A stretch of DNA of 64,000 nt, taken from Candidatus Bathyarchaeota archaeon (lineage in GTDB: Archaea; Thermoproteota; Bathyarchaeia; 40CM-2-53-6). The stretch covers positions 32,001 to 96,000 of the forward strand of contig CAWHWX010000019.1 in assembly GCA_963833125.1 (NCBI GenBank). The letters are read 5' to 3'. The number at the start of each line of letters is the position of its first letter. Positions within the stretch are counted from its first letter, which is position 1. The notes beneath the pieces were generated by a model. The model had not been told where the DNA came from and did not search any database. It saw only the letters and a program-made list of their open reading frames with translations. Of this stretch, positions 11,022 to 51,969 are shown in pieces. Both the position numbers and the translations under genes were made by a program.

Positions 11022-11187
11022 GGAGTCGGCAGCGGTCCGGGACTCGCGTGGCCTTTCGGAACACACTACTACCCGAATCGCCTGAGAGATTCACTTCCGT
11101 GTTTCCGGTACGAGTCTGCGCCCATTTAGCTGCCCGCACTTTCGGAATGGGAACGGGTCCTAGCCCTCAGCTATGGCCGCCAACTCC
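11022..11187 (-). rRNA. rrf: 5S rRNA gene (166 nt) interrupted by a 39-nt BHB-type insert; about 127 nt if spliced
   Basis: Minus strand GGAGTTGGCGGCCATAGC...ACCCGTTCCCATTCCGAA[39 nt]CACGGAAGTGAA...TAGTA...GCTGCCGACTCC; terminal 12-bp helix; 5S signature motifs in order. Confidence 0.93.
11102..11140 (-). other. Putative BHB intron in 5S rRNA loop C
   Basis: TCCG AA^A GTGCGGG...CTCGTAC CGGA AA^C; ligation gives CCCATTCCGAACACGG. Confidence 0.8.
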
Positions 11188-11209
11188 AACAGACGCACTG
11201 TCCAGCGAA

Positions 11210-11217
11210 TAATTAAA
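11210..11217 (-). promoter_or_regulatory. TATA box of the 5S rRNA gene
   Basis: TTTAATTA starts 30 nt upstream of the 5S 5' end; a T5 run follows the 3' end (11016-11020). Confidence 0.6.
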
Positions 11218-11259
11218 CGTAGAGCCCGCCACAATTACTGCCTTCGTGTGGAATGTAGC

Positions 11260-12417
11260 TTGAGAGGGGCGGCCATAATTGGGGTTGGGACGACGTCAAT
11301 TACCGCAGGTTCTGGCAGAAGCCTAACGGAACTGTTCGTTGATGCCGCGAAGCAAGCTATCGACGAGGCAGGAATTGACAAAATTGACTCGATATACGTT
11401 GGAAATATGATGTCCGGTTTCTTACAGAACCAAGAACACCTCGGCGCATTGATGGCCACGGCGCTCGGCAGAGAGGGGGTGCCGACCTACAAGGTCGAAG
11501 GCGCTTGTGCCTCTGGCGGGGTCGCCACAAACGCAGCCGTAAAGGGATTACTTTCCGGACTAGAGGATGTCGTGCTAGTCGGTGCCGTTGAGAAGATGTC
11601 TGGTTATACTACCCCGGAGGTGACGGCAGGGTTGATGATGGCTGAGGATAGAGTCAAGGTTGCTTCAACTGGTGTCACGTTCGTTGGCCTCAACGCCATG
11701 ATCGCCAGACAATATATGCACAAGTACGAGGTCTCCCACGAGGCGATAGCTGAATTCCCGGTCTTATGTCACCAGAATGCATTGGACAACCCGAAAGCGC
11801 AATTTCGAAAGAAGATAGGCGTCCAGGATGTTTTGCAGTCTCCCTTAGTCGCAGATCCGCTCAGGCTTCTAGACTGCTCTGGCATAGGGGACGGGGCTGC
11901 AGCCCTTCTCCTAGCCCCAATGGAGGTGGCCAAGAAATACACGGATTCGCCCGTAGAGATAGCCGCGTCAGCAGTATCAAGTGATACGCTGAGCCTCTAC
12001 CAAAGGCCCGAGATTACCACTTTCGAAGCTTCCAGGAAAGCTTCAGATCGCGCATACAAAATGGCCGGTGTCCAACCCGAAGACGTTGACCTGCTTGAGG
12101 TTCACGATGCATTCTCCATCCTGGGTATTATGGCGCTGGAGGATCTCGGCTTCGCGGCGAAAGGTTCAGGGGCTAAGCTTCTGGAGGAAGGTGAATGTTT
12201 CCGAGACGCTCGGCTTCCAACAAACAGCTTCGGCGGACTCAAGGCCAGAGGCCACCCAGTCGGAGCAAGCGGGGTCTTCCAAGTTGCGGAGCTAGCCCTT
12301 CAACTCAAGAACGAGGCTGGGAAGTGTCAAGTGTCTGGCGCGGAAATCGGTCTTGCACAGAGTGTTGGTGGAATCGGCAGCACAGTCACAGCTCATATTC
12401 TTCGCAGGATGGATTAG
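11260..12417 (+). CDS. Archaeal thiolase (acetyl-CoA acetyltransferase family)
   Basis: VEGACASGG, EVHDAFS, GGLKARGHPVGASG; TTG start at 11260 avoids overlap with the 5S gene. Confidence 0.9.
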   Translation: MRGAAIIGVGTTSITAGSGRSLTELFVDAAKQAIDEAGIDKIDSIYVGNMMSGFLQNQEHLGALMATALGREGVPTYKVEGACASGGVATNAAVKGLLSGLEDVVLVGAVEKMSGYTTPEVTAGLMMAEDRVKVASTGVTFVGLNAMIARQYMHKYEVSHEAIAEFPVLCHQNALDNPKAQFRKKIGVQDVLQSPLVADPLRLLDCSGIGDGAAALLLAPMEVAKKYTDSPVEIAASAVSSDTLSLYQRPEITTFEASRKASDRAYKMAGVQPEDVDLLEVHDAFSILGIMALEDLGFAAKGSGAKLLEEGECFRDARLPTNSFGGLKARGHPVGASGVFQVAELALQLKNEAGKCQVSGAEIGLAQSVGGIGSTVTAHILRRMD

Positions 12418-12420
12418 TAA

Positions 12421-12753
12421 ATGTCGGCGCACCCATTACAGATCGTTTCATACGTTTGCCAGAAATGCGGCTGGGCAGATTTCTATCCCGCTGAAACTTG
12501 CCCACGTTGTTCTAATAACACAAACCAGACAGCATTTCCCGGCGTAGGGAAAGTCGTAACTTTTACCGCAATAAGATATCCTCCAAAAGGATTCGAGAAT
12601 CAAGCCCCTTACGTAGTGGCAATTATTGACATAGAGGGTGGACCAAGAGTTATCGGCCGCCTTTCTAACTCCAGTGACTCGGTTAAGATCGGTGCCGCCG
12701 TGGTATTGAAATCAAGAAAGGAAAGTGTTCTGGAATTCCAGCTTTCATCCTAA
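12421..12753 (+). CDS. DUF35-type Zn-ribbon/OB-fold protein (thiolase partner)
   Basis: CQKCG...YP...CPRC, GKVVTFT, PYVVAII; directly follows the thiolase. Confidence 0.85.
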   Translation: MSAHPLQIVSYVCQKCGWADFYPAETCPRCSNNTNQTAFPGVGKVVTFTAIRYPPKGFENQAPYVVAIIDIEGGPRVIGRLSNSSDSVKIGAAVVLKSRKESVLEFQLSS

Positions 12754-12763
12754 GCTGTAGTAC

Positions 12764-12817
12764 TATTAGTATTATCAGTATGATTAATGTTGTTAGTGGT
12801 GTTAGTATTGTTAGTAT
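12764..12817. repeat. Degenerate 9-bp tandem repeat (6 units, consensus TRTTAGTAT)
   Basis: TATTAGTAT TATCAGTAT GATTAATGT TGTTAGTGG TGTTAGTAT TGTTAGTAT. Confidence 0.6.
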
Positions 12818-12995
12818 TATATTCGAAGCGTAACGGTGGTCGACAGGACGCAAGACCTAGAAGGGTTGGTCAAGAAACTTGGTCAAACCTGAGTGATGCT
12901 TTGCTTATCGGTTGTCACCTCATTTGGGAGAGTTAATAGGGTTAGGAAACGGTTAAGGACGACCGAGGTTCGAGTTATTTCTCGGTGCCGCATCG

Positions 12996-13391
12996 ATGCC
13001 GAGAACAACACAAGACGAGCTGATTCGGATTGACCCAGAGGAAGTCTTCAAAATGAATCCGGCAATCAGGTGGGTTGGCCTCACATCTGAGTTTGGTGCA
13101 CCGATCTTTACGAAGATGCGTGAGGGCGTCATTAGCTTAACACCTGAAGAATTGGACAGAACCCAGCTAGCTCACACACCTTACTTGATGATGAGCATAC
13201 CACAAGAGCTGGAGCCATGGTACGGTAAGGTTAAGGGAGTTGTTACATATCACGACAAACTGGCGAACTTGTTTGTGCAGCTCAGGGACCGCACGTTTCT
13301 CGTTTTAGCATTTGAAGGGTCCACGCCCTCCGATACCATTAGGTCTGTGAATAATGCGATCCTTTCGAAGTGGGGACGCCAAGCCGACTGA
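12996..13391 (+). CDS. Hypothetical protein, possibly roadblock/longin-like fold
   Basis: 131-aa ORF with IRWVGL...KMREGV..L and YGKVKGVVTYHDKL pattern resembling small TACK proteins. Confidence 0.55.
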   Translation: MPRTTQDELIRIDPEEVFKMNPAIRWVGLTSEFGAPIFTKMREGVISLTPEELDRTQLAHTPYLMMSIPQELEPWYGKVKGVVTYHDKLANLFVQLRDRTFLVLAFEGSTPSDTIRSVNNAILSKWGRQAD

Positions 13392-13458
13392 GAAGAACCA
13401 GTCGCGCCACTTTTGCCACTGCCTCACTGAAGGTCTTGGGGAGTTGAGGGATAACTGA

Positions 13459-14979
13459 TTGGCAGAGACATCATTCGAGTTTAACGAAGCGACTATCGAT
13501 CAGCTTCAGGATGAGATGCGATCAGGACGTCAGACAGCTCGTTCCATCGCGGAGCACTATTTGGACCGAATCGAGCAGCTGAACCGGCAAGGGCCGTGTT
13601 TGAGGGCGGTGGTTGAACTCAACCCTGACGCCTTAACAATCGCCGACGAGCTCGACCGCGAAACGGAAGCAGAATGGGTTTCGTGGTCCGCTGCATGGCA
13701 TTCCAGTATTGCTCAAAGACAGTATTGATACCGCGGATCGAATGGCGACGACTGCCGGATCGTTGGCGTTAGAAGGATCGACCGCATCGAAAGATGCCTT
13801 CCTAGTGCAGCGTCTGCGAACTGCGGGAGCAGTTATTCTTGGAAAGGCGAATTTGAGCGAGTGGGCAAACTTTCGATCCACTCACTCTGTGAGCGGGTGG
13901 AGCGCCAGGGGCGGGCAAACCCGTAATCCTTACGCGTTGGATCGAAACCCATGCGGCTCCAGTTCAGGTTCGGCGGTTGCAGTGGCCGCTAACCTATGCG
14001 CTTTAGCGGTCGGTACAGAAACTGATGGGTCAATAACTTGTCCTTCTGCCGTTAACGGAATTGTTGGCATCAAGCCTACTCTAGGGTTGGTTAGCCGAAA
14101 TGGTGTCGTACCAATCGCCCACAGCCAAGATACGCCTGGACCAATGGCTCGAACAGTCCGCAACGCGACTTTGCTATTGAATGTGATCGCGGGAGCAGAC
14201 CCAGCTGACCCTTCGACAATGAATCACTCCGCCTTCGAGTTAGACTATACGAAATGTCTCAATCCTAATGGGCTTCGAGGAGCGCGGCTTGGGATTGCGA
14301 GACAGTACTTCGGTTCGAATGCTTCAGTTGATAGACTAATTGACAACTGCATTACGGAAATGAAGCGGCAGGGAGCCGAAATAATCGATCCCGTGGAATT
14401 TGCTTCGTTCAAGCAGTACGACGATTCTGAACTCGAAGTCCTCCTCTATGAGTTCAAGCACGATCTCAACCTGTACCTCAAAACACGCGGAAACTCAGTT
14501 GCTGTCAAGTCTCTCGCAGACATCATAGCATTCAACGAGGAACGGCGGAGTGAGGAGATGCCTTACTTCGAACAGGAAATCATGTTAAAAGCAGAGGCGA
14601 AAGGACCGCTAACAGACGAGCAATATAGAGAGGCATTGGCCAAGAACCATCGCCTCTCTCGTGCGGAAGGAATCGATGCGGTTATCGCCAAGGATAAGCT
14701 GGACGCCATAGTGGCCCCCACAACCGGCCCCGCTTGGTTACTGACTGGATAACCGGAGACCATGAAAGTGGAAGCTGTTCAACACCGGCTGCCGTAGCAG
14801 GGTACCCTCACATCTCGGTGCCAGCTGGTCTCGTTCACGGGTTACCCGTTGGAATTTCCTTCTTCGGTCCAGCATGGAGCGAACCAACCCTCCTTAGAAT
14901 CGCATACGCCTTCGAGCAAACTACCAAGGCGCGACGGCCACCAAATTTCTTGCCAACCACAGATCCCAACCTCCCGTAG
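13459..14979 (+). CDS. Amidase-signature family amidase (two apparent frameshifts)
   Basis: GKANLSEWAN, NPCGSSSGSAVAVAA, GTETDGSI; split over ORFs 13459, 13709, 14734. Confidence 0.85.
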
Positions 14980-15027
14980 CCCGGGAAGCACTTAGAAATT
15001 CTCGCTGAATAGCCACTCAATCGTGCC

Positions 15028-15888
15028 TTAGTTTGTTCCTTTTGCAGGTGCAATTTCGAACCTACAGAACGGCGCACCTTGTACAACGCATTGAGTTTCA
15101 ACGGCCTCTACCTTCTTGTCGAACACTTCTGAGAACAACCCCGCTATGTCTCCTCGGACGTATTGGCTGTACGGTTCTCCACCTTCGCCTCGATGCATTA
15201 TGCACTCAAAGTTCTCAAAAGCTTGAACAACTGCAAGTCCCGTGATCGAAATCTACCTCCATGAGTTTGAAGATTCCCCAACCTCCTGCGGCATACATGT
15301 TCATCATGTTAGGGAGCTGATCTCTGATGCTGTCCTTACCGATAGTTTCCAAGAAAGATTTGGTGGACGACTGACCACCTGCTCGACCCATCTGATGTAA
15401 CAGCACCTTCCCCAAGGAACCATCTACGCCGAAAATTTCACGAGGCCGAGAGAACACTGAGCCTATAGTGTCCAGTCTGAATATTATCGCACGATTCTTT
15501 CCCAACATGAGAGGATGGTGTAGAGTGTCTACAATCACGCCGTTCAGCCCATCTTGAGTTTGGACTTTCTTTACAACCGGGAGCGACTTCAATTCTTGAC
15601 CGAGTTGAGCCGTAGATGCATCCGATTGGCTTAGGTCCGCAAGAAACTCCAGCGTGCAAACTCGTGAAAGCCAGAGCGAATATTCGCCTTGTGTTTCGCA
15701 AGAATATCAGCCACTTCCCTAAGCATGCCTGGCTTGTCGCTTGTGAATTCAATGCTGAATTCCGCGAGACGAACATTAGCAGCCTCAACCTCAGCAACAA
15801 ACGCACGCTTAGGAGAGTATTCTGGGGTCTGGTCGGATTTAGGAGGATTTTCTTTAGTCTTGGCAGCGGTCATACCTTGCGCCAGCAT
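15028..15888 (-). CDS. ACT-domain plus V4R-domain protein (frameshifted)
   Basis: DKPGMLREVADILAKHKANI (ACT); GGWGIF and terminal CVVQGAPFCRFEI (V4R). Confidence 0.7.
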
Positions 15889-16243
15889 TTAGCGGAACTT
15901 GGCATTCAGCTCCCTTTCTTCACTACGTTTTGCTCTTTTCACGAGATAACCTGTGGTTTGCCTATTTACTATAACGTTGCGTTACGCGTCCCACCTTTCT
16001 GCCGTGATGGGAACAGCAAGTGGATCTATTTGAGCAACTTCATTTTGTGGGATAACTGTGGGGGTTCAAAATCTGAACTAATGTAACGGTGGGCGGCGGG
16101 GCCGCACACTCAAGAATTAGATGCATCGTAAACTAATGTCTTGACGAGACACTTTGAGTAAGTGGGCCCAATTCCTTGGGCAAGAAGATTGACCGATTCC
16201 AACCGAGTTCTTTGGTCAATGCTGGTTGACTGACAAAATGTTG

Positions 16244-17743
16244 TTACGGTCTGTGTGTACGCCGTCCAATTATGTAGGCTGGTACAATCGCCGCAATTGC
16301 AACCATTAGGGCGAGGATGAGGTATGTTTGGGTTGGATTGAGTTCGGACACTGCCGTCGTTGTTGTGGTCGTTTCTGGTGCTGGGCCAACGAAGTTTGCG
16401 GGTTCGATTAGGGTGGGTTGAGGTGCTTGGTTGAAGTCGAATGAGTTCATCATATCGTTCGCCTTCACGTCCCTCACGCCTAGGCTTGGGAGGTTGAAGT
16501 TATCCTCCGCGAGCCTCAGAAGCGAGGCGAATTCGTATTGCGTGTGGTCAATGTAGCCCTGTTTCGCCCATGGCGAGATGACTAGGGTTGGGACTCGGAA
16601 GCCTTCGCCGTAGGCATCGACCTGAGGTGGAGGAACATTGTCGTAGAACCCTCCGTAGTCGTCCCACGTTATGATGATCGCTGACGACTGCCAGTACTGG
16701 CTCTGCATTACCTGGTTCACCAAATAGGAGACATAGTCCATTCCACAGTCGCTCCGTGCTGGTGGGTGTTCGCTGGGCGATTGGCCTTTGCAGGCCGCCG
16801 GGTAAGTGGGGGGGACCCAGCCGCCGGGTATTATCCATGAAACAGCGGGCAACTGCCCGTTCGCTATGGCGGAGATGAAATTGGGTGTGTTCTTGACATG
16901 GTCGCTTAGCTGGCTTGGACTGTTCTGGAAGTATGTGAAAAGCGGTAGTACGTCCCAGATGTTCGGTTGTAATGGTCTACGGTTTCCGTCGTACCATGCC
17001 CAAGACACGTTTGCGTTGCTCATCTCTTGGGCAAGCGTCGACCAGTCCAACGAAACGCTTTGCCAGTTGAGGTTCGCGTTCGGGTTGTCGATTATTCCGC
17101 CGTTGAGAATCCATGGGTAGGTGAGGTTGGTGGGTCCGTTTGTACCTGAAGCGATGTATAGGTGGTTCGGGAAGCTCGGGCCCATTAGTGAGGAGAAGAA
17201 GTTATCGTCGATAACATACTGGTTCGCGTAATCCCAGTAGTATGGGATGTCGCTTCGATCATAATATCCCATTGTCAAAATACTTCCCTCCGCGGCGACG
17301 AACCCATCCATCTTGCCATCATCATATGCCTCGTGCGCCACATGCCACGCATGACTTAGATCCCCTCCAATCGACTCGTCGCTCAAATGGTATGGAGTCG
17401 TGTTTTGGACCTGTTGTAAATCGTCGGGGTCAGCGACACCCGGCGGGAGCTCATCACCTACAATCATGATGGGTCGGGAAACATCCAAGTGAAATGGTTT
17501 CACGTATCCTAAGCTAGTCTGGTTCGGGTTGAACGGAATACTCACGCCCATCGGCAGCCCGTTCACGCCGGGATACGTACCGAAGTAATTGTCAAAGGAA
17601 TGATTCTCCTGCACGATGAAGATGAGATGCTGGATCTTCGAACCCGATCCGTTAGCGGGACCGGGCGCTATAAGAGGCAGTGTCATTCCGCCAACAAGCA
17701 TGACGATCATCGCGAGCGGGATGATCGCGTAAACAAACTTCAT
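16244..17743 (-). CDS. Secreted, C-terminally anchored phosphoesterase (phospholipase C/acid phosphatase family)
   Basis: Signal peptide; [42 protein letters not shown]; C-terminal TM. Confidence 0.9.
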
Positions 17744-17852
17744 TTACGCTCACCAGATTTGGAGCAATCGATGATTTGAGCCGTAATTAAAGCATCGTGG
17801 ACGATTCGTCTAGCTTTCCGACAGAGCGTGCGTGTGAGACAGTCAAGCATAA

Positions 17853-19443
17853 ATGCGGAATAACTTTGTTTACATCGTGGCATCATTGGCGTCAGCTTCC
17901 TACGATGCAATCGTGATAGGCGCGGGCCATAACGGCCTCGTTGCTGCGAATTATCTTGCGAGAAACGGTTTCCGAGTCATCGTCCTAGAGAAGAGACACG
18001 TTCCAGGCGGAGCCTGTGTAACAGAAGAAGTTTGGCCTGGGTTCAAGATAAGCAGACTATCGTACGCTTACAGTCTCTTCAGAAGCGAGATTGTGAATGA
18101 TTTACAACTCGAACGGCATGGGTTCAGCATTGTCTCCCCAGCGATCGATGTCTTTGTCCCGTTCGGAGACGGAAGACATCTGAGTCTCTACAGTGACTCT
18201 GGGAAGACTAAGAAAGAGATCGAGAAATTCTCGGCAAAAGACGGGAAAGGGTACGAAAACTACGTCAAGTTCTGGAACGAGGTTCGGATGCTCTTTGGTG
18301 CAATTGGGATGAGTGCGCCACCCCCGCTGAAGGACATAGCGACGTTGCTCGAGGATCCATCGTCTACGGATTTCATCAAGAAAGTTATCTTCTACAGCGT
18401 CCGCGACCTTCTAGACGAATTCTTTGAAGATGATCACGTTAAGGCTGCATTCATGGCGAGAGGCCTCATCGGCACCTTCGCTAGCCCAAGCACGCCCGGA
18501 ACTGCATACGTACTCGGACATCACGTGATCGGGGAGGCGGCAGGAGAACAAGGGGTTTGGGGATATGTCCGTGGCGGTATGGGTGGTTTAGCTGAAGCAT
18601 TGGTCAAAGCGTTGAAGGAAGCGGGTGGCAACGTGATGCTTGGCGCTCCAGTCTCTAAAATTTCCGTAAAGGACTCTGCCGTAACCGGTGTAGTTCTCGG
18701 CGATGGAAAAGTCATTGAATCAAAAATCGTGCTTTCAAATGCGGACCCGAAACAGACAATGCTGAAGCTCTTGGGGAGAGAGCATCTAGAGAGTGGATTG
18801 GCGGAGCGACTATCTTCTCTCAAGGATGAAGGGTGCGTGTTGAAGTTGAACGCAATCCTAACCGGGTTACCGCGGTACAAGGACTACCCAACACCCACTG
18901 GACCGCACTTGGAGGGCATAACAGGGATAGGGCCGTCTCCGGATTACTTTGAGAGAGCATACTTCGACGCATTGATGGGAAGATATTCCGAGAAGCCATT
19001 GCTCAGATGTGTATACCACACTGTAACCGACCCGACGCTTGCCCCGAAGGGTTACCATACATTATCGGTTTTTGCACAATTCTTCCCGTATCACTTGCGT
19101 AGTGGCAATTGGGATGAGATGAAGGAAGGAGCCGCTAAGGTAGTCTTCGAGACAATGGAGGAATTCGCGCCAGGCTTTCGAAAACTCGTCTATAAGTACG
19201 AAGTGATAACGCCATTAGACATGGAGCGGGAGTTCTCGCTGCCAAAAGGGAACATCTTCCACGCCGGAAATAATTCCCTCCCAGATGCTGTCGTTCAGAC
19301 CAACTCCCGAACTCTCAGGGTATAAGACGCCGATCGGAGGTCTCTATTTGTGTGGCTCAGGAAGCCACCCAGGCGGTGGAGTTACGGGTGCGCCTGGCTA
19401 CAATGCGGCGCACTTAGTCATCAAACAGCATGAAAATGCTTGA
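17853..19443 (+). CDS. Phytoene-dehydrogenase-like FAD oxidoreductase (frameshift near 19265)
   Basis: [27 protein letters not shown]-terminal [24 protein letters not shown] in the shifted frame. Confidence 0.85.
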
Positions 19444-19553
19444 CGGTTTCCGGCGGTTCAGTTTCATCGGGTGGTAACGTCAACTTGTCGGTTGCTGCTG
19501 CAAACCGCTTCGTATGGGGGGATCGAGGCGTAGAATGAGGCGAGGGGTATCTT

Positions 19554-19599
19554 CGTTTGGCACCGTTTGGCACCACCCCTCGAGGGGTGGATCCACCCC
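19554..19599. repeat. Tandem 10-mer followed by two overlapping perfect palindromes
   Basis: CGTTTGGCAC x2 (19554-19573); CCACCCCTCGAGGGGTGG (19573-19590); GGGGTGGATCCACCCC (19584-19599). Confidence 0.75.
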
Positions 19600-19709
19600 A
19601 CCTAATTCCGCACAGAAAACAAGAGGAACCGCTTAACAACCGTTAACTGGACGTTACCCATCGGGTGGTTAGTGTTAAATACTAATGAGCCATCGTTACC
19701 TCCTTTTTC

Positions 19710-21308: not shown

Positions 21309-21398
21309 ACCCCTCTAACCATTCAATCCCGCCAACCACATCGTCAGGCCGGCGTACGACCTAGCCTGTCAATTCGATCTTCTTCAACCGGTTTGAAG

Positions 21399-22219
21399 TC
21401 ATACGGAAACGGTTGATCGCTTCTCAGCGAGAGCTGAATAGAGCCTTGGGGCCCTATCTCGGAAGTAGGGTAGCTTAGTTCTCCTAAGATTCTTGAGGCT
21501 GGGAAGATCCAGCTCTGCCTGGACCAGACCCTCTGATTCACTCATCCTTGCAAGAGGCTGACAGGTCGGAGAGACGATCTGGCTCTGGCCGAAGAACACG
21601 AGCTTGCCCTCGCGTCCTACCCGGTTGGAATGGCAAGCAAAAACGGAGTTTTCTCCAGCGCGACTTCTAACATATGTGTCAACCATCACTTGCATGGGCT
21701 TCATCTGCGCGGAAGAATAGAAGAGGATATCCGCGCCCCCCAGCGCCATTATCCGTGCCGGCTCAGGAAACTCTAGGTCATAGCAAATTCCAAGACCTAT
21801 CCTACCAAACCTCGTCCGGAAGACCGGGAACGAATTTCCGGGCGTGAAGTACTTTTGCTCGTTGGCCCACAAGTGGACTTTTCTATAAACGCCGGCAACA
21901 TCGCCTTGCGGGTCGATAAGGACTGAGGAGTCGTAAATCCTATCGCTCATTGAGTCGAGTTCGTCAATTCCGCAGATTAAGTAGAAGCCATGCTCGCTCG
22001 CCATGCGCCCGAGCGCATCGGACGACGGTCCCGGGATCGTCTCCGCAAGTTTTCGCCACGAGCGGTTCAGTGCGTAACCTGTGGTGGCAAGCTCCGGAAA
22101 GCAAACCAGATCCGCTTCGCGCCGCCGGCGCGGTTTGCGAGAGATTTGATTTTGTTGAGATTGCGTTTGACGTTGCCTAACGTACAATTCATTTGCGCCA
22201 CGGCGACGGTAGGGTTCAT
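21399..22219 (-). CDS. Carbon-nitrogen hydrolase (nitrilase superfamily), N-terminal frameshift
   Basis: FPELATTGY, YRKVHL, GICYDLEFPE catalytic E-K-C; true N-terminus MNPTVAVAQM in another frame. Confidence 0.85.
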
Positions 22220-27738: not shown

Positions 27739-27751
27739 ATTTTCGATACTA

Positions 27752-28802
27752 TCAGTTGGAAAGAGTTTCGGGAGGTGAGGGGACTGCCGGGTAATTCGGC
27801 GGCCAAGTATGCGCGTTTCCAGCATCAAGTTCTTTGAGTGCTCCCTCAATTTCATTCCTCCTCGGCTCCAACCATGGCGCAAGCCGGGGATTCGTCGGCG
27901 CTATATCCGGGACCCTTGGTTGCGATTTCAAGAAGATTTCCATCCGGATCACGGAAGTATAGGGATTTGAACTAGAAGCGGTCAATTACGCTGGAGTTAT
28001 GAACGTTCAACGTATTCATTCGTCGAAGTATTCTCTGCTGGGCTGCCTCGTCCTCCACACACATCGCTATGTGATGTACACTGCCGATTCCCACCCCACC
28101 CAGCGGGGCCTTGGGGATGCGAGGTAGCGAAGAAAAATCAGGTCGATTCTCGTTATCAACGCCGATTATGGCTGTATCCTTCTGGTCTGGGTTAGGACGT
28201 TCGAAGGAACTCTGCAGGCCTAGCAATCGGTCGAGGATCCGAACTGTTCCCTCCGAGTTTAATGTTACGGGACTGACGTGATCAAATGAGATCAGCTTCA
28301 TGTCAGATCCGATATCTCGCCAGCAATTGGGGCTTCCCGGTTTAGTTCATGCATGTAGTCGGGAGTGACGTGTTCATCATTTGGTTTCTAATTTCAACCA
28401 TAACTCCATCCGGATCCTTCAGATAGAGGGAGATGCGCCTATCTCAATGAACGGGCCGGTAACAGACAACCTTGTGAAAGTAGTCACCAGGCCCTCCATT
28501 TCGGCAGCACCTCCAATGTCGCAACGGCGTAGGAGAGGTGATGTGGAGAAGTGAGGCCTGGAACGCCCTTCGGCAAGCCAGGCCATTCGAAGAATGTTAT
28601 CGCACTGCCCGTCTCAGCCCTATCGTTCGCGTAGAATAGATGCCTATGGAAAATGTCGTCTTGGTTTACAGTAAGCTTTACTCGTCGTAAGCCGAGAATC
28701 TTCGGTGTAGAACCTACGGTTGATTTCTTCGTTTGAGGTTACGAGGGTAATGTGGTGAAGACCTTGAACGACACCTTCGAGGTCAGATTGTATCGCCGTC
28801 AT
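27752..28802 (-). CDS. VOC/glyoxalase-family ring-cleaving dioxygenase-like protein (multiple frameshifts)
   Basis: VQGLHHITLVTSN, TVNQDD, GSVHHIA, VIDRF fragments in several frames. Confidence 0.7.
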
Positions 28803-29008
28803 TTCAGTTGCTTATAATTTGTTTCCAGACTAGTTACGGATAGCTTTGAAGGCTTCAACGGCGAGTCGTTTTCTATAAGTCCACTGCGCTCGTCACATGA
28901 AGATTGTAGGTTCGGAAATGCCGCCGTCCATCGAACTGTCTCTGTACTATTCGCGACGGGGCCAACGTAGATTTATGTTCCCATAGCAACGTATTCCGCC
29001 GACGAGTT

Positions 29009-41416: not shown

Positions 41417-41649
41417 TGGTGGGGCCGAAGGGACTCTCATGGTTCGGGCCTCGAACCATTTTGAACCCTCGACTTCCGCCATACCGTCATGTCTACGGGT
41501 TTCTTCGCTCCTGAAGTTCGTCATTCCGTTCAGGTCCGCAAACCCGTTAAGGTTTGGTCTTCTGGAGCCCTTGGCGGGTCCGTATCCCTGTCGTCATCCC
41601 TGGCTAGACACCGCCACCCCTTCGGAATTCTCGGAGTGACTACGGCCCC
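41417..41649 (-). tRNA. trnW: tRNA-Trp(CCA) with five introns (233-nt gene, 77-nt mature, encoded CCA)
   Basis: Spliced product GGGGCCG TA GTC TAGCCAGGGAT GAC G ACGGG CTCCAGA CCCGT AGGTC GAGGG TTCAAAT CCCTT CGGCCCC A CCA; introns 41639-41609, 41589-41571, 41561-41501, 41492-41474, 41459-41434. Confidence 0.88.
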
Positions 41650-41769
41650 ACATGGGTTGGACAGGGTCGGCCCCAGCACCCCACCCTCAGAGAGTTGCTA
41701 TAACGATTATGGCTGGCTCCAGGTCAACGCATATAATACTACGAACAGACGGAATCCTATCGAAGGTTC

Positions 41770-42995: not shown

Positions 42996-43549
42996 CTTTC
43001 AGCAAATCCGCCTTGGTTATGATTCCCAGCACGTGCCCACGCCGGACCACGAGCACTGCAGGCTCATACTGAAGCAACGCAGAAACCATCGACACTGGCG
43101 CAACCTCATTCACCAGTGGAAACGCCTCATCCATTATCGTCTCTATCTCTCCTCGACACAAGGTCGGGTTTCGGAGATAACACGAGCTTCGGAACAATCG
43201 TTTTCTCCGTTAAGCTTCCTACAACTTGATTTCCGTTGAAAACAGGGAACTGGGAGAAGCCGGTTTCCCGCATCAAATGCACCCCCCTCGAGATCGGTTC
43301 ATCAGACTGTACACTCACGACTTTGCCGTGGCAAATCTCCTTCGCCTTCATCTCGTCTCTTCGTTCCAAAGTCTCGAGGGTATCAAAGATGGCTTTGGTT
43401 TTCAGGTATGATGGACTAATGTTCTTGCTCTCAATCTTCGAGATCATTGATTGGCTTATGCCGGCGAGGTTAGCCAGCTTTTTCTGGCTTATCGCTAGGA
43501 GCCGACGCCGTCTTCCAATCTCCTCTAATCCTGGTAGCATGGGATCCAA
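42982..43549 (-). CDS. HTH plus CBS-pair transcriptional regulator (frameshift)
   Basis: ISQKKLANLAGISQSMISKIE, FSQFPV, GIITKADLL. Confidence 0.85.
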
Positions 43550-43647
43550 ACCCGTCTACGAAGGGTATTCTCCGGGGAATTTTTTCTTATCGCAAGGTTA
43601 TATTATAGGAATATCGGAATTTCGCCAATAAGTTTCAGTGAAATTAC

Positions 43648-44835
43648 TTGAGCAAACTCTCCAGCGGATCAACCAATGTAGCGGTGGCTTTGAGCCAAAA
43701 GCCTCGAACTTACATGTTCACCTCCGAAAGCGTCACCGAAGGTCACCCCGACAAGGTAGCAGATCAAATCTCAGATACGATCCTCGACGCCATCATGCAG
43801 AAGGATCCGAAATCACACATAGACATCGAAACTCTCATAATGAAAGGAACCATCATTGTTACGGGTCAAATCTCCACAGCAGCCTGGTCCAGGTTCGCCA
43901 AATAGTCCGCAACGTACTTCAGATATCGGCTTCGACAATGCGAAGGTAGGCTTGGATTGGGAAGCCTGCGGAGTCCTCGTCTCATCGAAGGAGTCGCCAG
44001 ATATCGCCATGGGGGTCGATAAGGAAGACGTCGGCGCCGGCGATCAGGGAATCGTATTCGGATACACGACGAATGAAACTCCTGAACTAATGCCCCTACC
44101 GATCGTCCTAGCCCACAAACTTGTCAGACGTCTCGCAGAGGTAAGAAAACAGGAATTCTACCCTATCTGCGGCCTGATGGAAAGTCGCAAGTGACCGTTG
44201 AATATTCGGACGGCAAACCCAACCGTTAACGCAGTAGTCATCGCAGCCCAACACAACGAAGACGTGCCAAGGGAGCAAATGAGGAGGGATATCATCGAGA
44301 AGGTAATCGAAAACGTCATCCCCAAGAACATGCTCAACAAGAACCCTAAATTCTTCATAAACGAAACCGGCCGCTTCACAGTCGGGGGCACGCTCGCTGA
44401 TTCCGGCTTGACTGGAAGAAAGATAATCGTTGACACGTACGGCGGGATTGGAAGCCATGGCGGCGGTTGTTTTTCCGGGAAGGATCCGACGAAGGTCGAT
44501 CGATCCGGGAGTTACATGGCGAGGTACATTGCGAAGAACGTGTCACGGCAAGCCTCGCCGACAAGTGCGACGTGCAGATCGCCTATGCCATAGGCGTTTC
44601 AAAGCCGGTTTCGGTCATGGTCTACACCTACGGGACTGGTAAGGTGTCGGATGAGAGAATTACGGATGCAGTGAAAGCGGTTTTCGACATGACCCCCAAG
44701 GGAATAATCGAACGCCTAAATCTCCGAAGGCCTATTTACAGAAAGACAGCAACCTACGGACACTTCGGACGGGACGATCCCGACTTCACATGGGAACGCA
44801 CTGACAAAGTAGACGAACTGAAGAAACACGCATAG
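43648..44835 (+). CDS. metK: S-adenosylmethionine synthetase, bacterial/eukaryotic type (multiple frameshifts)
   Basis: [62 protein letters not shown]. Confidence 0.92.
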
Positions 44836-44921
44836 TCAGTGTTGAAATGGGAACACGGTATCAATCGTAGATCCTTGAATGTCGTCCAATCAAGTCCATT
44901 GCGAGGATTAGCACCAGTATA

Positions 44922-46054
44922 TTGATTCGGCCCATTCGAGCGGTTTCGTGGCTTAACGCTGGGCGGTTGTCAATGGATGTAGGAAAGTCACTACAGCGCG
45001 TAGTTACAACGGGTAGAATGCTTGCCCTAATTCTCGCCATCTTCTCGGCCTTCACTTACGTAATTACCCTCATCTTAGGCCCAGTACTTTACTTCTCTAC
45101 CTCCGATGGCCTGAAGGACGCCGGGCACGTGATTCACCAGCTCCCATTGGACATTTTCATGCTGTACATAGTTACCTACTGGCGGAATGAGCCACGGAAC
45201 CTTATTAGCGATAATTTGGATCATTTTCGTGGTTTGCATCGTGGCAGCATTTCTTAGCGCTGGAGGTTTTCTGAAATCAGTAAAGGATGCCCTCTCTAAG
45301 CCGATTTCAGTCGCGAAAACAAACTTCCTTTACCTCATGCCGCTAGTGGCCACGGGTCTGCGTTACACGACAATTCTCATTTCAGAATTCCAAACGACGC
45401 AGGGCATTCAGACAGGCAGCTTGAACTTTCCCGCTCAAACAAGCCCATACTTAATCCTCCTCAATCTTGCCTACACTACCGATAAACGGAAGTCGCCTTC
45501 CGGATAACAACGATCGGAATCCCGTTCGCCGCATTCATTCTCATCATTTACCGATCGGATGCACGGATGAAGGGGGTGAAGAAACGCATGGGTTTATTTC
45601 TGCTCGCCCTATTCAGTCCCGAACTCGCCAAATCTAAGCTGGGTTACAGGACCGTGGCTGCAAACGGTTTCATCCCTGGCATTAGTCCCATGAAGTGGGC
45701 GCTTATACTGGTAAGCTCGGCGGTGTTCGGGATAGCCGCTACATTGGTGGAGGTGGCTGGGAGATCGGGAAGGTTTCGACGGCGGCCTTGGCAGGTTTCG
45801 TATTTGCTATCATGTACGTCAGCTACGGAGCCTACGCAGATATACTCATGCACTGGTTCTTCAACTATTATTTCACGGTCCTCGATATGGCGAGCACCGA
45901 CGTACGGTGGCATGTTTACGGGATTCGACCAGTTGAAATCAGGAACATTTTCGCAGGCCGAGTCGGACTTATCGTCATTATCCTAATCTCCGCCCTAAGG
46001 CTAGGCGACTATCTCGCGGTACGGGCCACGGGAATTCCCACGAAGACCACCTAA
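44922..46054 (+). CDS. CPBP/Abi-like intramembrane protease (multiple frameshifts)
   Basis: Hydrophobic fragments with SSAVFG, GGWEIGK, ILMHWFFNY. Confidence 0.55.
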
Positions 46055-46187
46055 CCCATTCAACAATCTTATACGGCAAAACAACCCAACTCAGGCTGGT
46101 GCAGGGGCCTGTATCACCGCCAAGTCCACTAAGACCTGAAACAAGCCTCTCTTGGGCCTCAATGCATTTTCTAGCAAGTGACAACAC

Positions 46188-48565
46188 TTGGCAACTTCGG
46201 AGAAAACTGAAACCGCGAAGAAATTCCTGCCCAGATCACCGAGAAGAGATGGGACCATAATGTTGAGAGGACAATTTTCGATCAATGGCAGCAGGAAGGG
46301 ACATTTAGGTTCAAGACCGGTAACGCAAAGAAGCCTCCATCATCGATACTCCGCCGCCAACCACCTCAGGAACTTGGCACATAGGTGCAGTGGCAGCCTA
46401 CTCACAAATCGATATGATTGCCCGATCCCAACGGATGCAGGGAAAATCCGTTCTATTCCCAATAGGGGTCGACCGAAACGGAATCAATGTCGAGATCTAC
46501 GTAGAGAAGCAATCAAAGGTGCGGATGCGGGACACACCGAGGCAACAATTCATCGACCTATGCTCACACACACTAGACGAGCTCGAGGCTCAAATGTTGA
46601 ACATGATGAAGCGGGTCGGGTTGGGTGGGGAGTCCGATGGCAGATATCATACCGATCACGAAGACTACCGGAAGCGGACGCAGGCCACATTTATCGAACT
46701 CTGGAAAAGAGGGCTCATCTACGAAACAACACGCCCCAACAACTACTGCCACGTGTGCTGAACAACAATCGCCGACGCAGAAGTAAAATACGAAGATCTT
46801 CCCTCGAACCTGACGTATCTCAACTTCAAAATTGAAGAGACAGGCGAAACGCTAGTGATCGCAACAACCCGGCCTGAACTTGTTTGCGCATGTCAGTTGG
46901 TAATCGTGAACCCCACGGACGAGAGATACACGAAGTTTCATGGAATGCCGCCACCAATTGTACCCATCTACGGCCGTAAAGTCGAAGTTAAACCCCATCC
47001 GAGCGCAAAAGCCGAGTTCAGGATACTGGGGTCGTCATGATTGTGCAGCTACGGAGACTACACGGACGTACTACTCTTCAGGGAGTTGAGTCTCGAAAGA
47101 GGTCTTAGCCGTAGGGCCGGATGGCAGACTTACCGCTGCCGCAGGAGCATACCAAGGTTCTACGATGTTAGAGGGACGCTCGCGAATCCTAGAAGACTTG
47201 CGCTCTCAGGGCCTACTCGTCAAAACTCAAAAGATTAGGCACCGCACACCAGTATGCTCACGCAGCAACACCCCAATTGAAATCATACCGATGAAGGAAT
47301 ACTACCTAAAGCAAATAGACTTCATCCCGAAGCTCAAACAACTCGCTAAGCAAATCACCTTTCACCCCGAGGCGGGTAGGCAGATATTGCTCGACTGGAT
47401 AAACTCGATAACGATTGACTGGCCGATCTCCGGACAAGCACGTATACGCCACTGAGATTCCCCGTTTGGTACTGCAAGAGCTAGGGGACTACATTCCTCC
47501 CCTCCCCGGGCGAATATTACAGGCCATGGAGAAATCGACCCACCATCTGCAATATGTTCCAAATGCGGTCACGCTGAATTTGACGGGGAGACTGCGCACA
47601 TTCGACACCTGGATGGACTCAAGCATTTCCTGCGCTTTACATTTCCAAATACCAACTAGACCCCAAGTTCTTCAAGCGAGCATACCCTGCAAGCATTACG
47701 GCCTCAGGGCAAGGACATAGTGAGAACTTGGCTCCACTACTCCGTCCTGAGGTGCTACCAATTAACAGGCCGAGCGCCATTTACAGATGCGTGGATAAAC
47801 GGGCTTGGGATGGATGAACAAGGTCAGGCGATGCACAAGAGCAAGGGGAATGTTGTAGAGCCTGAGCCGGTTCTTGAAAAGTTCGGAGCAGACTCATTCA
47901 GGTTCTGGAACGCTTCCGAAGCCACCCTTGGGTTCCGATTTCCGTTGCTCCGAAATGAGAATCGCCGCAGCCCACAAGATTCATGACGAAACTCTGGAAT
48001 CTCTCCCGTTTCATCTCATCCTTCCCACAAGTCAAGACTGCCAAACTCCAGCCCAGCGACAAATGGATTCTCTCCGAACTCACCCTACTAATACAAAAAT
48101 CCATGAAGGGCTATCGCGATTACAATTTCTTTGTTCCCTCAACAGCAATTAGAGACTTCGTCTGGGAGACATTTGCCTCACATTACCTAGAGATGGTGAA
48201 ACCTCGCGCCTACGGCGAGGGCTTCACAAAGAGCTCAGCAGAAAGCTGCATGGTACACGCTCCACACGGTCTTGAAGAGCATACTCCTTCTACTTGCACC
48301 CATCGCCCCGTTCATGCCAGAGCACGTCTGGAAGCAATTGTACTCGAAAAGAAGCATCCACGCCCAGCAATTCCCAAAGCCGGCGTGGTCGAAAGCATCG
48401 AAACGCTATACCCAGAAGATGTTAGACTTCAACCGAGAAGTCTGGAAGATTAAGAAAGAGAAGAGCTTGGCTCTACGTGACCCAGTCGAGGTAAAGGTCC
48501 CGAAGGCTCTAGCGCCCTTCACAGACGACTTGGTTAGGATGCACTCATTGATCACGAAGCCATAA
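46188..48565 (+). CDS. valS: Valine--tRNA ligase (many frameshifts)
   Basis: IDTPPP..SG.WHIG, IATTRPE, CSYGD, DWPIS, FDTWMDSS, MHKSKGN, KLWN fragments. Confidence 0.88.
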
Positions 48566-48608
48566 TCGAAGTGCAATAGTTTAATATCGCAAGACTCGCT
48601 CTAGCGCC

Positions 48609-48911
48609 TTGATTTCGATGAAGGTATCCGAACTCAAGCCTGGAATGCGGCGTGTGGACACGATAACCGCCAAGATTCAAGAAATCTCCCCAGCAAGGGA
48701 AGTAACGACAAGAAGGGGCGAACAATCCAGGGTTGCTACAGCAGTTGTCGCGGATGATTCTGGCACCGTCAAACTCAACCTCTGGAATGAACAAATCGAC
48801 CAGGTAAAGGCAAACGATACAGTGACGATTGAGAATGGATATGTGGATAGTTTCCGTGGCGAGACCCAGCTGAACGTAGGCCGATACGGTAAGCTCACTG
48901 TGCAGCCATAA
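48609..48911 (+). CDS. ssb: Single OB-fold single-stranded DNA-binding protein (crenarchaeal type)
   Basis: MKVSELKPG, VADDSGTVKLNLW, IENGY, LNVGRYG. Confidence 0.85.
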   Translation: MISMKVSELKPGMRRVDTITAKIQEISPAREVTTRRGEQSRVATAVVADDSGTVKLNLWNEQIDQVKANDTVTIENGYVDSFRGETQLNVGRYGKLTVQP

Positions 48912-48952
48912 CTGAAATCTTCGTTCCCCTTTCGCCGGTTAAGGCCCAAAAT

Positions 48953-49837
48953 TTGAGCACAGACGATCGCTTCGAAGAAATAAAACATCTACTTGACTCA
49001 ACGATAAACGAATTTCAAACACTCTTCGAATCGGCGGGTGGGTTCGAAGACTCAAGAGTCGGAAATGGTTGGGCTCCGGATAAGTTAACGCCTGAGGTCT
49101 ACTGCCTCGAGCCAAAACCCCTACCAGAACTGCTCAAGACGGCTGAGGACCGTAAGGCATCCTTGTTCAAAAACCGAGTCCTGTCTCTGCTCAAACCGAA
49201 GGACCAAGACGTTCACGCCGCGGAACCACCTAAACTAAAACTAATTCCATTCTGGAGAATTCATGGATACCATGAATGCTTCTACTTTAGGGGAAACACG
49301 TACAAAATCGATCTTCCCCCGGACGTCGTCGCTGTGGAAGTTGAGGGAAAGATCAGGGATCTCGTTGAACTGGGCTCTGCTGAAGGACAGGGAATATCGA
49401 ATTTAGCAAAACGGTTACTGGGGAGAAGGGAGGGGTCAGAATCAAAATCGTTTCGACTAAACGAAATCACGGAGCTAGCGCACATGTACGACGAGAATTC
49501 CCTCTTTCTCAATGCGCATGGAAGGGAAGACCTCGAGGCCGAGGCGTTCTTCGACCGTCCCCTACCTCTCAAGAAGACAACCTACGAAGAACTACTCCTA
49601 CAATACCCTGCCGTAGAATTCGAGACAAATTCGATGACCAAAGAGGAATTGGTCGCGAAGCTCCATGCTATGGTCGTTAAGCCACCCGCGGCATTCTCAA
49701 AGATACTTAGTAACCGATTCCAAGTGACTGGGTCCGCCCAATACCTAATGCCGGTCTACTCTTTCATCTTTGAATGGCACGGACAAAAAAGAGCGCTATC
49801 CGTGCATGGATACACCGGCGGAATTTTTCAACCCTGA
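48953..49837 (+). CDS. Hypothetical protein
   Basis: Intact 294-aa ORF, no motif recognised. Confidence 0.65.
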   Translation: MSTDDRFEEIKHLLDSTINEFQTLFESAGGFEDSRVGNGWAPDKLTPEVYCLEPKPLPELLKTAEDRKASLFKNRVLSLLKPKDQDVHAAEPPKLKLIPFWRIHGYHECFYFRGNTYKIDLPPDVVAVEVEGKIRDLVELGSAEGQGISNLAKRLLGRREGSESKSFRLNEITELAHMYDENSLFLNAHGREDLEAEAFFDRPLPLKKTTYEELLLQYPAVEFETNSMTKEELVAKLHAMVVKPPAAFSKILSNRFQVTGSAQYLMPVYSFIFEWHGQKRALSVHGYTGGIFQP

Positions 49838-51283
49838 GAGAACTTGCGGTACCTCGGCCGCTTGAGAAGTCTCCTTAACCGGAAAATCGTAACTTTCCTT
49901 CCATAACGGGACACCGACCAACGAACAACAAACAGGACCCGCAACGACACCTACAATAACACTGATGAACAAATACGGCTGAGCTACCACCTCGTAAGTG
50001 GCCTTGCCCGAGTTCCCTAACGTGTCTCCTGCGCTAACATTCAACGTCCACGTCCCGCCACGAATCAAATCAAAGAGTGTGCTTGAGTACGAAGCCCGCC
50101 ATTCGCCAATGGAGGGGTCGTAGGTTGCCATCAACGGTGTGATCGATGATCCGGTGGAGACGACAAGGTTCACCGAGCCCGACGGTCAAAGGTGTTCCGT
50201 CCGGATATGTCACCTTTGATACTGTGCTGACTCGGGCCGAACGGAATTTGGATTCGTGTTCCGTTCAATTGACTGCTGATGATCAGGCTGGCATTCGTAA
50301 CTGTGAAGTAATTAGAGGCCGTGTCAACTGCCGCACCCTTGTTCCCGAATCCATCGTCAAAGGCCATTGCGGGCATGTCGAAGCGATATTTCCCGCTGGG
50401 CGTCGCAGTGGCGAAGAGTTTGACCCCAGCCGCCCAGATGCCGTTTGCGGGATCAACAAGGGTAAGATTGGCGGGGCCAAGTGTGGTCTGGTCTCGCATC
50501 AGGATGACGGGTTGTGAGGTAGGGTTTGAGGATTGACTACGGGGCTGCCGTCTGGGTATTGAATTGCCATCGTTACATTGGCAACTTGTGTCCTCTGGTA
50601 GGTTGAGTTTGGTTGGTTTACGATTCTGGTCGATAGTACTGCCTGCGTCACAGTAAATTTCGCCGTAGAGGAAAAGTCCTGTTGCGGATTATCGAATGTC
50701 CCCGTGCCATAGATCACGGCTGTAAATACATCTGTAATCGCGTCTGGCGGAATTCTCCAGGTATGATTGAAATCTCCCTCGGTCGTCGAAGCGAGTGTGG
50801 AGTGTACGATGTTGCCCGCCGGATCTTGAATAGTCAAACTGATGCTTGTGCCCGGAAAAATGCCCCCGCCTATGATGTTCACAGACTGAGTTCTTTGATA
50901 TACGGGCGCCGCTGAACCCCAGACACCGAAATGTGCGATCGCCTGCGCCAGTTATCGGTGGTTGATGACGTAGATAGGCTGATGAGGTACGTACCCAATT
51001 CTGCATTGGCTGAGAGAGGATAGGTTGTATCAGGAGGGATGAGTCCTCCAGAAACGGGCGTGAAGCTAACTCCGGTGTATCGTGTCTTGTTGGTGGCAGG
51101 TCCCCTTACCCAGAGGTAGTATTGTTGACTGGGCGTTAGCCCGGATCCGGCTAGGGTTACTTGCTTGTCTCTGATGGTGTACAAGTAATTGTCTGTGCTT
51201 AGCGAAGGTGATGCTTTGGCTGGAAGCGGGAGGGCTAGCAGGATCATTGCCAGGGCAAGAAGTATGATTTTGGTTTGCTTCAT
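49834..51283 (-). CDS. Secreted beta-rich surface protein with C-terminal TM (several frameshifts)
   Basis: Signal peptide MKQTKIILLALAMILLALPLPAKA; consecutive S/T/G-rich fragments in different frames. Confidence 0.6.
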
Positions 51284-51330
51284 TCGGTTTTTCCCTCCGC
51301 TTTCGCACTTCTTACTAGTATGGTGTCATT

Positions 51331-51457
51331 TGGCGCCCAGGGAGAGGGATTCGAACCCCCGAGGCCCATAAGGGCCACGGGCTTGCATTGAAGTTGACAC
51401 TCAAGCCCGCGCCTTTGGACCATTTTCCATGATGTTAATCCACTCGGCCATACCGGC
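51331..51457 (-). tRNA. Probable tRNA-Ser(TGA) with D-loop intron (51435-51415) and anticodon-loop intron (about 51399-51384)
   Basis: GCCGG.ATGGCCGAGTGG start, long variable arm GGCCC TTAT GGGCC, GGGGG TTCGAAT CCCTC, G discriminator and CCA; acceptor stem and loop are imperfect as sequenced. Confidence 0.75.
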
Positions 51458-51481
51458 TAAAGTATCCCTGAAGCCGATTCC

Positions 51482-51488
51482 TATTTAA
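51482..51488 (-). promoter_or_regulatory. TATA box for the tRNA-Ser gene
   Basis: TTAAATA starts 31 nt upstream of G51457. Confidence 0.5.
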
Positions 51489-51495
51489 GTTCCCG

Positions 51496-51969
51496 TTGGC
51501 TTGCGGGCGCGAAAATTCAGATAGGTCTTCGCTTTGGCAGCCCCCACGTTATGAGTTTCTTCCACATACAACAGACGCATACATTCAATCTGTTGGTCCC
51601 ACTTTTGAAGAGGCGCTTGAAAATGCGGGGCTAGCGCTGTTCGATACGATGTGTAACTTAGATTCAATTTCGAATAAAGAGGTCGACGATGTTGAGGCTG
51701 ACGGCGGTGACGAAGTAGAGCTTCTCTATGATTGGCTCGAAACGCTGCTGCTGAAGTTCGAGCTCGACAGTAAGGTCTACTCGAAATTTCATGTCACTCT
51801 CTTGAAGACAGCTCCCAACATCCTACAACTCAGAGCCAAGGCCTACGGCGAGACCTACAATCGTCAGCTTCATGGCTCTAAGGTTGAGGTAAAGGCGGTG
51901 ACCTTTCACAGAATGGAAGTCGTGAGAGAAGGAAATTTAGTCATTCTGAGGTTCATACTTGACCTCTAG
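51496..51969 (+). CDS. Archease (RtcB RNA-ligase cofactor); start uncertain
   Basis: YEFLPHTTD, LLYDWL, VEVKAVTFH, terminal FILDL. Confidence 0.92.
   Translation: MACGRENSDRSSLWQPPRYEFLPHTTDAYIQSVGPTFEEALENAGLALFDTMCNLDSISNKEVDDVEADGGDEVELLYDWLETLLLKFELDSKVYSKFHVTLLKTAPNILQLRAKAYGETYNRQLHGSKVEVKAVTFHRMEVVREGNLVILRFILDL

Follow-up and report, generated by a model that had tools for sequence, protein, structure and literature searches.

In the canonical bulge-helix-bulge (BHB) motif of archaeal precursor transfer RNA (tRNA), a 4-bp helix lies between two 3-nt bulges on opposite strands, and each bulge is cut after its second base. BHB introns in archaeal ribosomal RNA (rRNA) have been described for the 16S and 23S molecules, and 5S rRNA genes are, to our knowledge, generally treated as intron-free. 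In Halococcus, the 5S rRNA has a large insertion that is retained in the mature RNA, is located elsewhere in the molecule than the insert described in this work and is not known to have a BHB. The gene studied here is the 5S rRNA gene of a Candidatus Bathyarchaeota archaeon (genome G000), which is located in a 64,000-nt stretch of contig C19 (G000:C19:32001-96000; the window) and carries a 39-nt insert that probably is a spliced archaeal BHB intron. As in Halococcus, extra sequence is found inside an archaeal 5S gene, but the insert has, as read from its sequence, the anatomy of a spliced intron. Full-text searching of the literature, with subscription journals outside its coverage, found no report of an archaeal 5S rRNA intron.

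The closest described system, as reviewed in 2014 (PMC4033280), is that of the Thermoproteales-type tRNA introns, which share with those reported here canonical and relaxed BHB motifs, a two-subunit tRNA splicing endonuclease (EndA) linked to relaxed motifs, many insertion positions including 59/60 and the presence of several introns per gene. The lineage described here differs in that it consists of mesophilic peat and soil Bathyarchaeia, in that its host RNAs include 5S rRNA, and in a tRNA-Trp gene with five introns, four of them kept in all 25 aligned relatives, whereas the review gives three introns as the maximum per archaeal tRNA. BHB motifs in rRNA are also treated there. The 16S and 23S BHB introns and the BHB processing stems of pre-rRNA resemble the 5S inserts in that these would likewise be EndA substrates in rRNA, and the 16S gene of G000 contains one such intron of 50 nt; the 5S introns, in contrast, are tiny (17-66 nt) and lack an open reading frame (ORF). 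Outside tRNA, a BHB intron was already known in the cbf5 pre-mRNA of Crenarchaeota (Yokobori et al. 2009, cited in PMC4033280), where the host, unlike 5S rRNA, is protein-coding. In bacteria of the candidate phyla radiation, whose 16S and 23S genes are full of insertions, none of at least 100 bp was found in 645 5S genes (PMC11270868). Compared with these systems, the 5S rRNA is best read as a predicted additional host for an established type of intron, in archaea whose tRNA genes are extremely fragmented.

G000 is a metagenome-assembled genome (MAG) of 3.07 Mb in 39 contigs, with a completeness of 87.8% and a contamination of 7%. The 5S gene was the single stable RNA matched by an Rfam scan of the window (E up to 1), and a whole-genome search revealed the interrupted gene as the only 5S match of G000. 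Loop C holds a 40-nt block that is left unaligned by the Rfam model, and alignment with relatives that lack the intron gives an insert length of 39 nt. Joining of the exons without these 39 nt restores a 122-nt 5S, identical at 122 of 122 positions to the uninterrupted 5S of relative G016, and a peat metagenome DNA contig that is 95-99% alike skips precisely positions 11102-11140. At the 5' end of the insert, the bulge AA^A (the caret marks the predicted cut) is closed by the 7-bp intron helix. At the 3' end, the bulge AA^C is closed by just 1 bp of exon-exon helix, which gives a relaxed (HBh'-like) motif. When the cut is placed after the second bulge base, following the canonical tRNA rule, the exact junction of the intron-less 5S alleles is reproduced. 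In the minimum-energy fold of the 161-nt transcript the 5S helices are kept, and the UUCCG/CGGAA helix, the AAA bulge and the intron hairpin are formed.

The distribution of interrupted 5S genes has been analyzed in three overlapping samples, comprising 41 relatives, 151 genomes of the class and 151 of the phylum (about 308 genomes together), with genes of at least 137 nt considered as long. Long 5S genes were present in 34 genomes, and 29 of them were read: 19 have the insert in loop C directly after UCCG.AA (site 1, occupied in G000) and 10 have it 11 nt upstream (site 2), where the exon ends in ...CCGU.AC^ and the intron in GCGG or GCGA plus 2 nt. The usual 122-nt 5S was found at 21 places among 40 genomes of the relatives sample, and longer genes in 10 genomes including G000; in the eight long genes fetched from this sample the extra bases (17, 19, 20, 20, 26, 39, 39 and 66 nt) follow the identical loop-C base (exon ...UCCGAA). 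A 5S match was obtained in 135/151 genomes of the class sample and in 145/151 of the phylum sample, with 17 and 14 long genes, respectively, G000 being included in both counts. Carriers of a site-1 insert include two genomes from other families (G051 and G307). Site 2 is occupied in three genomes of family f29, five of g87 and two of f45, and 10 of the 12 g87 genomes with a 5S match have a long gene. In the relatives and class samples the long gene is the sole 5S match of each genome that has one, several of these genomes being 93-98% complete.

Related copies of the G000 intron have been found at site 1. The same 39-nt intron, with five differences, is present in G015, and the 5S introns of genus g2, 26-56 nt in length, have their last 12 bases in common with it. 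Since G015 and genus g2 carry homologous copies, in two genera of the family, the intron is old and, by this comparison, no younger than the family. G016 and G019 lack the intron, and their flanks are closer to those of G000 (81-85% identical) than the G015 flanks are (70-74%). This pattern points to a recent precise loss or exchange, and, because the closest relatives are without it, the 5S intron would often be lost or exchanged.

The site-1 inserts all begin directly behind UCCG.AA, and their last six bases are a 4-nt strand pairing with UCCG plus two further bases; most of the inserts contain a hairpin. All four positions of this exon/intron helix are paired in 17 of the 18 tabulated site-1 genes, and three of the four in the other one. 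The intron strand is CGGA in 11 genes, CGGG in 5, CGGU in 1 and CGAA in 1; the last, in G161, occurs together with a change of the exon strand from UCCG to UUCG, a compensatory double change. For the 17 distinct site-1 sequences, 93.3% of 119 cells are paired, compared with 82.1% in shuffles, and none of the 500 shuffles reached the observed value (0/500). Slid partners, used as control, gave 24-57% pairing. Both sides vary in 4 of the 7 pairs, and the central 4-bp helix alone has 98.5% of its cells paired.

G000 encodes two EndA paralogs (PF01974), one with the Tyr/His motif, which we take to be catalytic residues, and the other without the His; this suggests a pair formed by a catalytic and a structural subunit. 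One RtcB is also encoded, and the gene for archease is located in the window. The anatomy of the insert with its conserved and covarying pairs, the exact intron-less alleles and the encoded enzymes lead us to infer that cutting and joining take place on the 5S transcript. In the primary transcript, UCCG of exon 1 would pair with CGGA in the 3' part of the insert, and this helix would be flanked by the bulge AA^A, closed by the 7-bp insert hairpin, and by the bulge AA^C on the opposite strand. The tRNA splicing endonuclease, with two different EndA subunits and of the relaxed-motif type, would cut after the second base of each bulge, and RtcB with archease would join the exons to give a normal 122-nt 5S rRNA and would probably also close the intron into a circle. 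These enzymes would likewise remove the five tRNA-Trp introns, the two tRNA-Ser introns, the 16S intron and the intron of the cbf5 mRNA.

Several observations weigh against splicing of the 5S insert. The motif is relaxed, and the exon-exon helix that closes the 3' bulge has 0-4 bp in the relatives. The minimum-energy fold gives a 5-bp central helix and a 2-nt 3' bulge, and its energy is no better than that of shuffled sequences (z -0.67), which is uninformative. In the RNA check, five RNA runs contained 5-8% of the sampled words, and three peat metatranscriptomes and one DNA run were assembled over positions 10900-11320; the three metatranscriptome runs gave 0 contigs over this interval, and splicing of the 5S is predicted from sequence. 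A second, intron-less 5S copy in G000 is possible, considering the completeness and contamination of the MAG. The small defects of contig C19 (lesions in tRNA-Ser and a cbf5 frameshift, see below) call for caution on single-base details.

Table 1. Position of the stable RNA genes, their introns and associated features in the window.
Feature	Coordinates	Strand	Description
5S rRNA gene	11024..11184	-	161 nt with intron; Rfam RF00001, 62.3 bits, E 1.1e-10
5S exon 1	11141..11184	-	44 nt, ends UCCG.AA, with UCCG forming the exon side of the central 4-bp helix; from alignment with intron-less relatives
5S intron (predicted)	11102..11140	-	39 nt: first A, 7-bp hairpin stem, CGGA (pairs with exon UCCG), AA
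5S exon 2	11024..11101	-	78 nt; from alignment with intron-less relatives
A/T-rich TATA-like box	11208..11217	-	about 29 nt upstream of the 5S 5' end; kept in 8/8 aligned relatives
tRNA-Trp(CCA)	41417..41649	-	233 nt; six exons (77 nt with encoded CCA), five introns
Trp intron 1, 10/11	41609..41639	-	31 nt; BHB scan and alignment
Trp intron 2, 28/29	41571..41589	-	19 nt; relaxed BHB, A.C mismatch in central helix
Trp intron 3, 37/38	41501..41561	-	61 nt; conserved sequence
Trp intron 4, 45/46	41474..41492	-	19 nt; BHB scan and alignment
Trp intron 5, 59/60 (T-loop)	41434..41459	-	26 nt; full BHB: 5-bp exon helix, 4-bp central UUCA/UGAG, 7-bp intron helix
tRNA-Ser(UGA)	51331..51457	-	two introns; copy with three lesions
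Ser D-loop intron	51415..51435	-	21 nt
Ser anticodon-loop intron (37/38)	51384..51399	-	16 nt; BHB irregular in the register used
Archease (cofactor of RtcB ligase)	51550..51966	+	Pfam PF01951, 120.8 bits, E 1.1e-34

Three stable RNA genes were found in the window (5S, tRNA-Trp and tRNA-Ser), with one, five and two introns, respectively. The preliminary description of this DNA had reported that all of them are interrupted, with 8 introns together, and this was confirmed; the start that it gave for the 5S insert (11102) agrees with the intron-less relatives, and the archease that it named was recovered as a Pfam match. ARAGORN with default settings and Rfam reported 0 tRNA genes in the window. 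The TATA-like box upstream of the 5S gene may act as its promoter.

The tRNA-Trp gene has been defined by an anticodon-arm search, a BHB scan and the alignment of 25 relatives, and a constrained cloverleaf solver independently returned the same five introns. Those kept in every aligned genome, across several families, are introns 2 to 5. Intron 1 is missing in 4 of the 25 relatives, and 3 others have a different D-loop intron. The A.C mismatch of intron 2 is an A-U pair in other families. Intron 3 is far better conserved than the other Trp introns and can still be identified in families f29 and f45; it includes an AUGA(N)GA box and two complementary stretches, one of 10 nt to the anticodon loop and one of 8 nt to the 3' intron/exon junction. 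It has the appearance of a C/D-box methylation guide, a role known for the Trp intron of Haloferax. The gene was not detected by pattern scans (T-loop, TTCGAA) of the ORF-free gaps of the window, and a strict BHB scan combined with chain enumeration and ARAGORN gave 0 matches because the real introns here are often relaxed. Enumeration over the 70 best BHB candidates, with ARAGORN for scoring, was dropped, since many false cloverleaves were obtained and the true Trp solution was missed. A literature search for an archaeal tRNA gene with four introns revealed no case among the matches listed. The 5' strand of the Trp acceptor (GGGGCCG) occurs a second time about 20 nt upstream of the gene (41655-41680, minus strand), and this repeat is kept in most aligned relatives. 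The distance between the 5S and tRNA-Trp genes is 0.1-2 kb in many relatives (G161 C13, G038 C2, G036 C15, G029 C15, G002 C7, G132 C1 and G082 C14) and 30 kb in G000.

Both tRNA-Ser introns are variable blocks between conserved exons in all 29 aligned sequences. The lesions of the window copy, all of which disrupt stems (G6-to-T, loss of 1 nt from the anticodon stem and gain of 2 nt in the 3' acceptor strand), are unique to it when compared with 28 aligned relatives and with the second copy of the genome on contig C21. This second copy (G000:C21:14763-14922) is intact and 98% identical, and C21 duplicates about 10 kb of C19 at 95-98% identity, probably as a result of strain heterogeneity. The tRNA-Ser of the window may be a pseudogene or contain assembly errors. 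Two stretches of the window (28302-29008 and 46836-47414) lack an ORF of at least 100 amino acids, yet are coding-like, as judged by eye alone; together with the Ser lesions and the cbf5 frameshift, they suggest indel errors or gene decay on contig C19.

At the genome level, ARAGORN without intron mode reported 7 tRNAs, three of them on contig C28, and Rfam gave 29 tRNA matches at E up to 1, with 18 above the cut-off. A scan for T-arm, acceptor and encoded CCA revealed 44 tRNA genes, 41 of which span 93-233 nt, at least 16 nt too long, and are thus interrupted; the 3 uninterrupted genes are all on C28. The G+C content of this contig is 0.521, compared with about 0.50 elsewhere, and C28 may come from another organism. 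The constrained cloverleaf solver, a heuristic, solved 32 of the 44 genes, with 12 left unsolved; several genes have many alternatives (212 for Lys), and the Trp copy on C21 and the gene on C29 look mis-solved. The intron census left out C17, C21, C3 and one C16 gene as duplicates, C28 as possibly belonging to another organism and C29 as doubtful, and 22 non-redundant genes were found to contain approximately 53 introns (1 to 5 per gene). T-loop introns at 59/60 occur at six non-redundant loci, three with UUCG.AA^ and three with UUCA.AA^, and these introns, of the same build as the 5S intron, provide the context in which the latter is read.

Other RNAs of G000 have also been inspected outside the window. 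In the intron of the 16S gene (C12:52720-54269), all 4 bp of the central helix are paired and the intron helix has 7 bp. At this position G033 and G036 have no insert, and that of G039 is 232 nt long; G038 (159 nt) and G025 (234 nt) have inserts at different 16S positions. The cbf5 mRNA has a 19-nt BHB intron at the catalytic-site codon (L141:1440-1520; G000 C19, at about 108.2 kb), and a separate 1-nt frameshift is found near L141:2000. The 23S rRNA has 3054 nt, compared with the 2987 positions of the model. The signal recognition particle (SRP) RNA, with 323 nt against a 317-position model, and the RNase P RNA, with 296 nt against 288 positions, leave no room for an intron.

The preliminary description had also claimed a lineage-wide spread of BHB introns, and this is supported and reaches further than it had recognised: 41/44 tRNA genes, the 16S rRNA, cbf5 and recurrent 5S introns at two sites are affected, and the condition that it considered adverse to its view, that other tRNAs are mostly intron-free, is false. 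Its suggestion that further RNAs could be invaded agrees with the intron of the cbf5 mRNA and not with the lengths of the SRP and RNase P RNAs. EndA and RtcB, which it had pointed out for inspection, proved to be the two EndA paralogs, one of them without the His residue of the motif, and the single RtcB described above. With respect to the origin of the 5S intron, it had proposed that a small circular intron from the T-loop position 59/60 (UUCG.AA^) was reverse-spliced into loop C of the 5S through a near-identical 4-nt helix, and that such introns invade any RNA with a matching helix. This origin is considered unlikely. The one-base difference claimed between the two sites is found at the three UUCG.AA^ loci and does not apply to the tRNA-Trp of the window, whose T-loop reads UUCA.AA^, two bases off UCCG.AA^. 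The statement that CGGA can pair with UUCG using one G-U is correct by pairing rules, and the 5S of G161 has exactly UUCG/CGAA. The proposal is also favored by the common build of the T-loop introns (UUCG.AA^A, hairpin, CGAA, 2 nt, ^U, in three non-redundant loci, and the UUCA variant in another three), by the adjacency of 5S and tRNA-Trp in many relatives and by the fact that presence or absence of the 5S intron does not track flank similarity.

The resemblance of the sites, however, is at chance level, about one position in five, because at 25 of the 116 positions of the intron-less 5S the upstream 6-mer fits some tRNA intron site of G000 at 5/6 bases or more. A second UCCGAA in the same 5S is uninterrupted in all 5S sequences read. 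When the 5S intron was compared with the rest of the genome (blastn-short), the best matches were 13-mers with E about 1. Against the 53 tRNA introns of G000, the only tRNA introns used in this comparison, the best shared word was 8 nt, a value reached by 115/300 shuffles; the best of 12 shared-word tests was reached by 8/300 shuffles and is not significant after correction for 12 tests. Thus, no tRNA intron among those compared resembles the 5S intron, a possibility that the preliminary description had itself regarded as contrary to its proposal, and the search for transposed copies (similar intron sequences at other sites or genes), of the kind proposed for Thermoproteales, gave nothing beyond chance for the 5S intron. 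The proposed jump from a T-loop by reverse splicing is therefore not upheld.

The second 5S site is not T-loop-like and resembles another tRNA position. Site 2 (..ACCCGUAC^A .. GCGG.AA^C) and the Trp 45/46 site of the order of G000 (..ACCCGUAG^A .. GCGG.AA^G) have the same exon 7-mer, the same first intron base and the same last six intron bases, the intron at site 2 following the exon ..ACCCGUAC^ as A-hairpin-GCGG-AA. This match was seen in L142-L148 (g87 and f45) and in L105, L107 and L111 (f29). When the site-2 genomes were searched for tRNA-Trp, the gene was recovered from f29 and G266, and not from the three g87 genomes tried; the site-2 genomes with a readable tRNA-Trp (G132, G102, G082 and G266) lack a 45/46 Trp intron, which speaks against a copy from that position. 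The common build of site-1 and T-loop introns, the likeness of site 2 to Trp 45/46 and the 5S-Trp adjacency are suggestive but post hoc. In a wider form of the proposal, BHB introns of Bathyarchaeia and neighbouring lineages would be mobile elements able to enter structured RNAs of any kind (up to five times in a tRNA, at two sites in 5S, and in 16S and cbf5 mRNA), a 4-nt guide near the intron 3' end pairing with the exon, reverse splicing being mediated by EndA and RtcB and followed by copying into DNA, and both 5S sites would have been copied from the tRNA sites T-loop 59/60 and Trp 45/46; only a small probability is given to this scheme.

Another explanation is that the insert is an expansion segment retained in the mature 5S rRNA, as in Halococcus, and not an intron. 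In favor of this view, the three peat RNA runs gave no contig that could show removal of the insert, and the insert is located in a loop, where extra RNA might be tolerated. However, four conserved bases of loop C are in every case paired with the insert's 3' end, and with covariation, and this pairing would hide loop C in the mature particle, whereas outside the BHB parts the length and sequence of the insert vary freely. The exact intron-less alleles of very close relatives also argue against a retained segment, and tRNA introns of the same genomes show the same anatomy as the 5S insert. Retention is thus considered very improbable. That the interrupted gene is an assembly artefact or a dead copy, as the small defects elsewhere on C19 and the incomplete, 7% contaminated MAG could suggest, is hardly credible, since it is contradicted by independent assemblies, with the G015 copy of the 39-nt insert and same-site inserts in 18 further genomes, and since the exons, matching those of a relative without a difference, are intact in what is the sole 5S match of the genome.

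Splicing of the 5S inserts, if it takes place, would make the tRNA splicing endonuclease and RtcB essential for all three rRNAs in archaea that are abundant in soils and sediments, and would add a fourth RNA class to the known hosts of BHB introns. A five-intron tRNA gene that is kept throughout an order goes beyond the three-intron maximum of the 2014 review (PMC4033280). Standard tRNA finders miss almost every tRNA of these genomes, so that MAG quality scores based on tRNA and 5S counts will be too low. Finally, the frequent presence/absence polymorphism of the 5S intron among very close relatives constitutes a natural system for the study of intron gain and loss.

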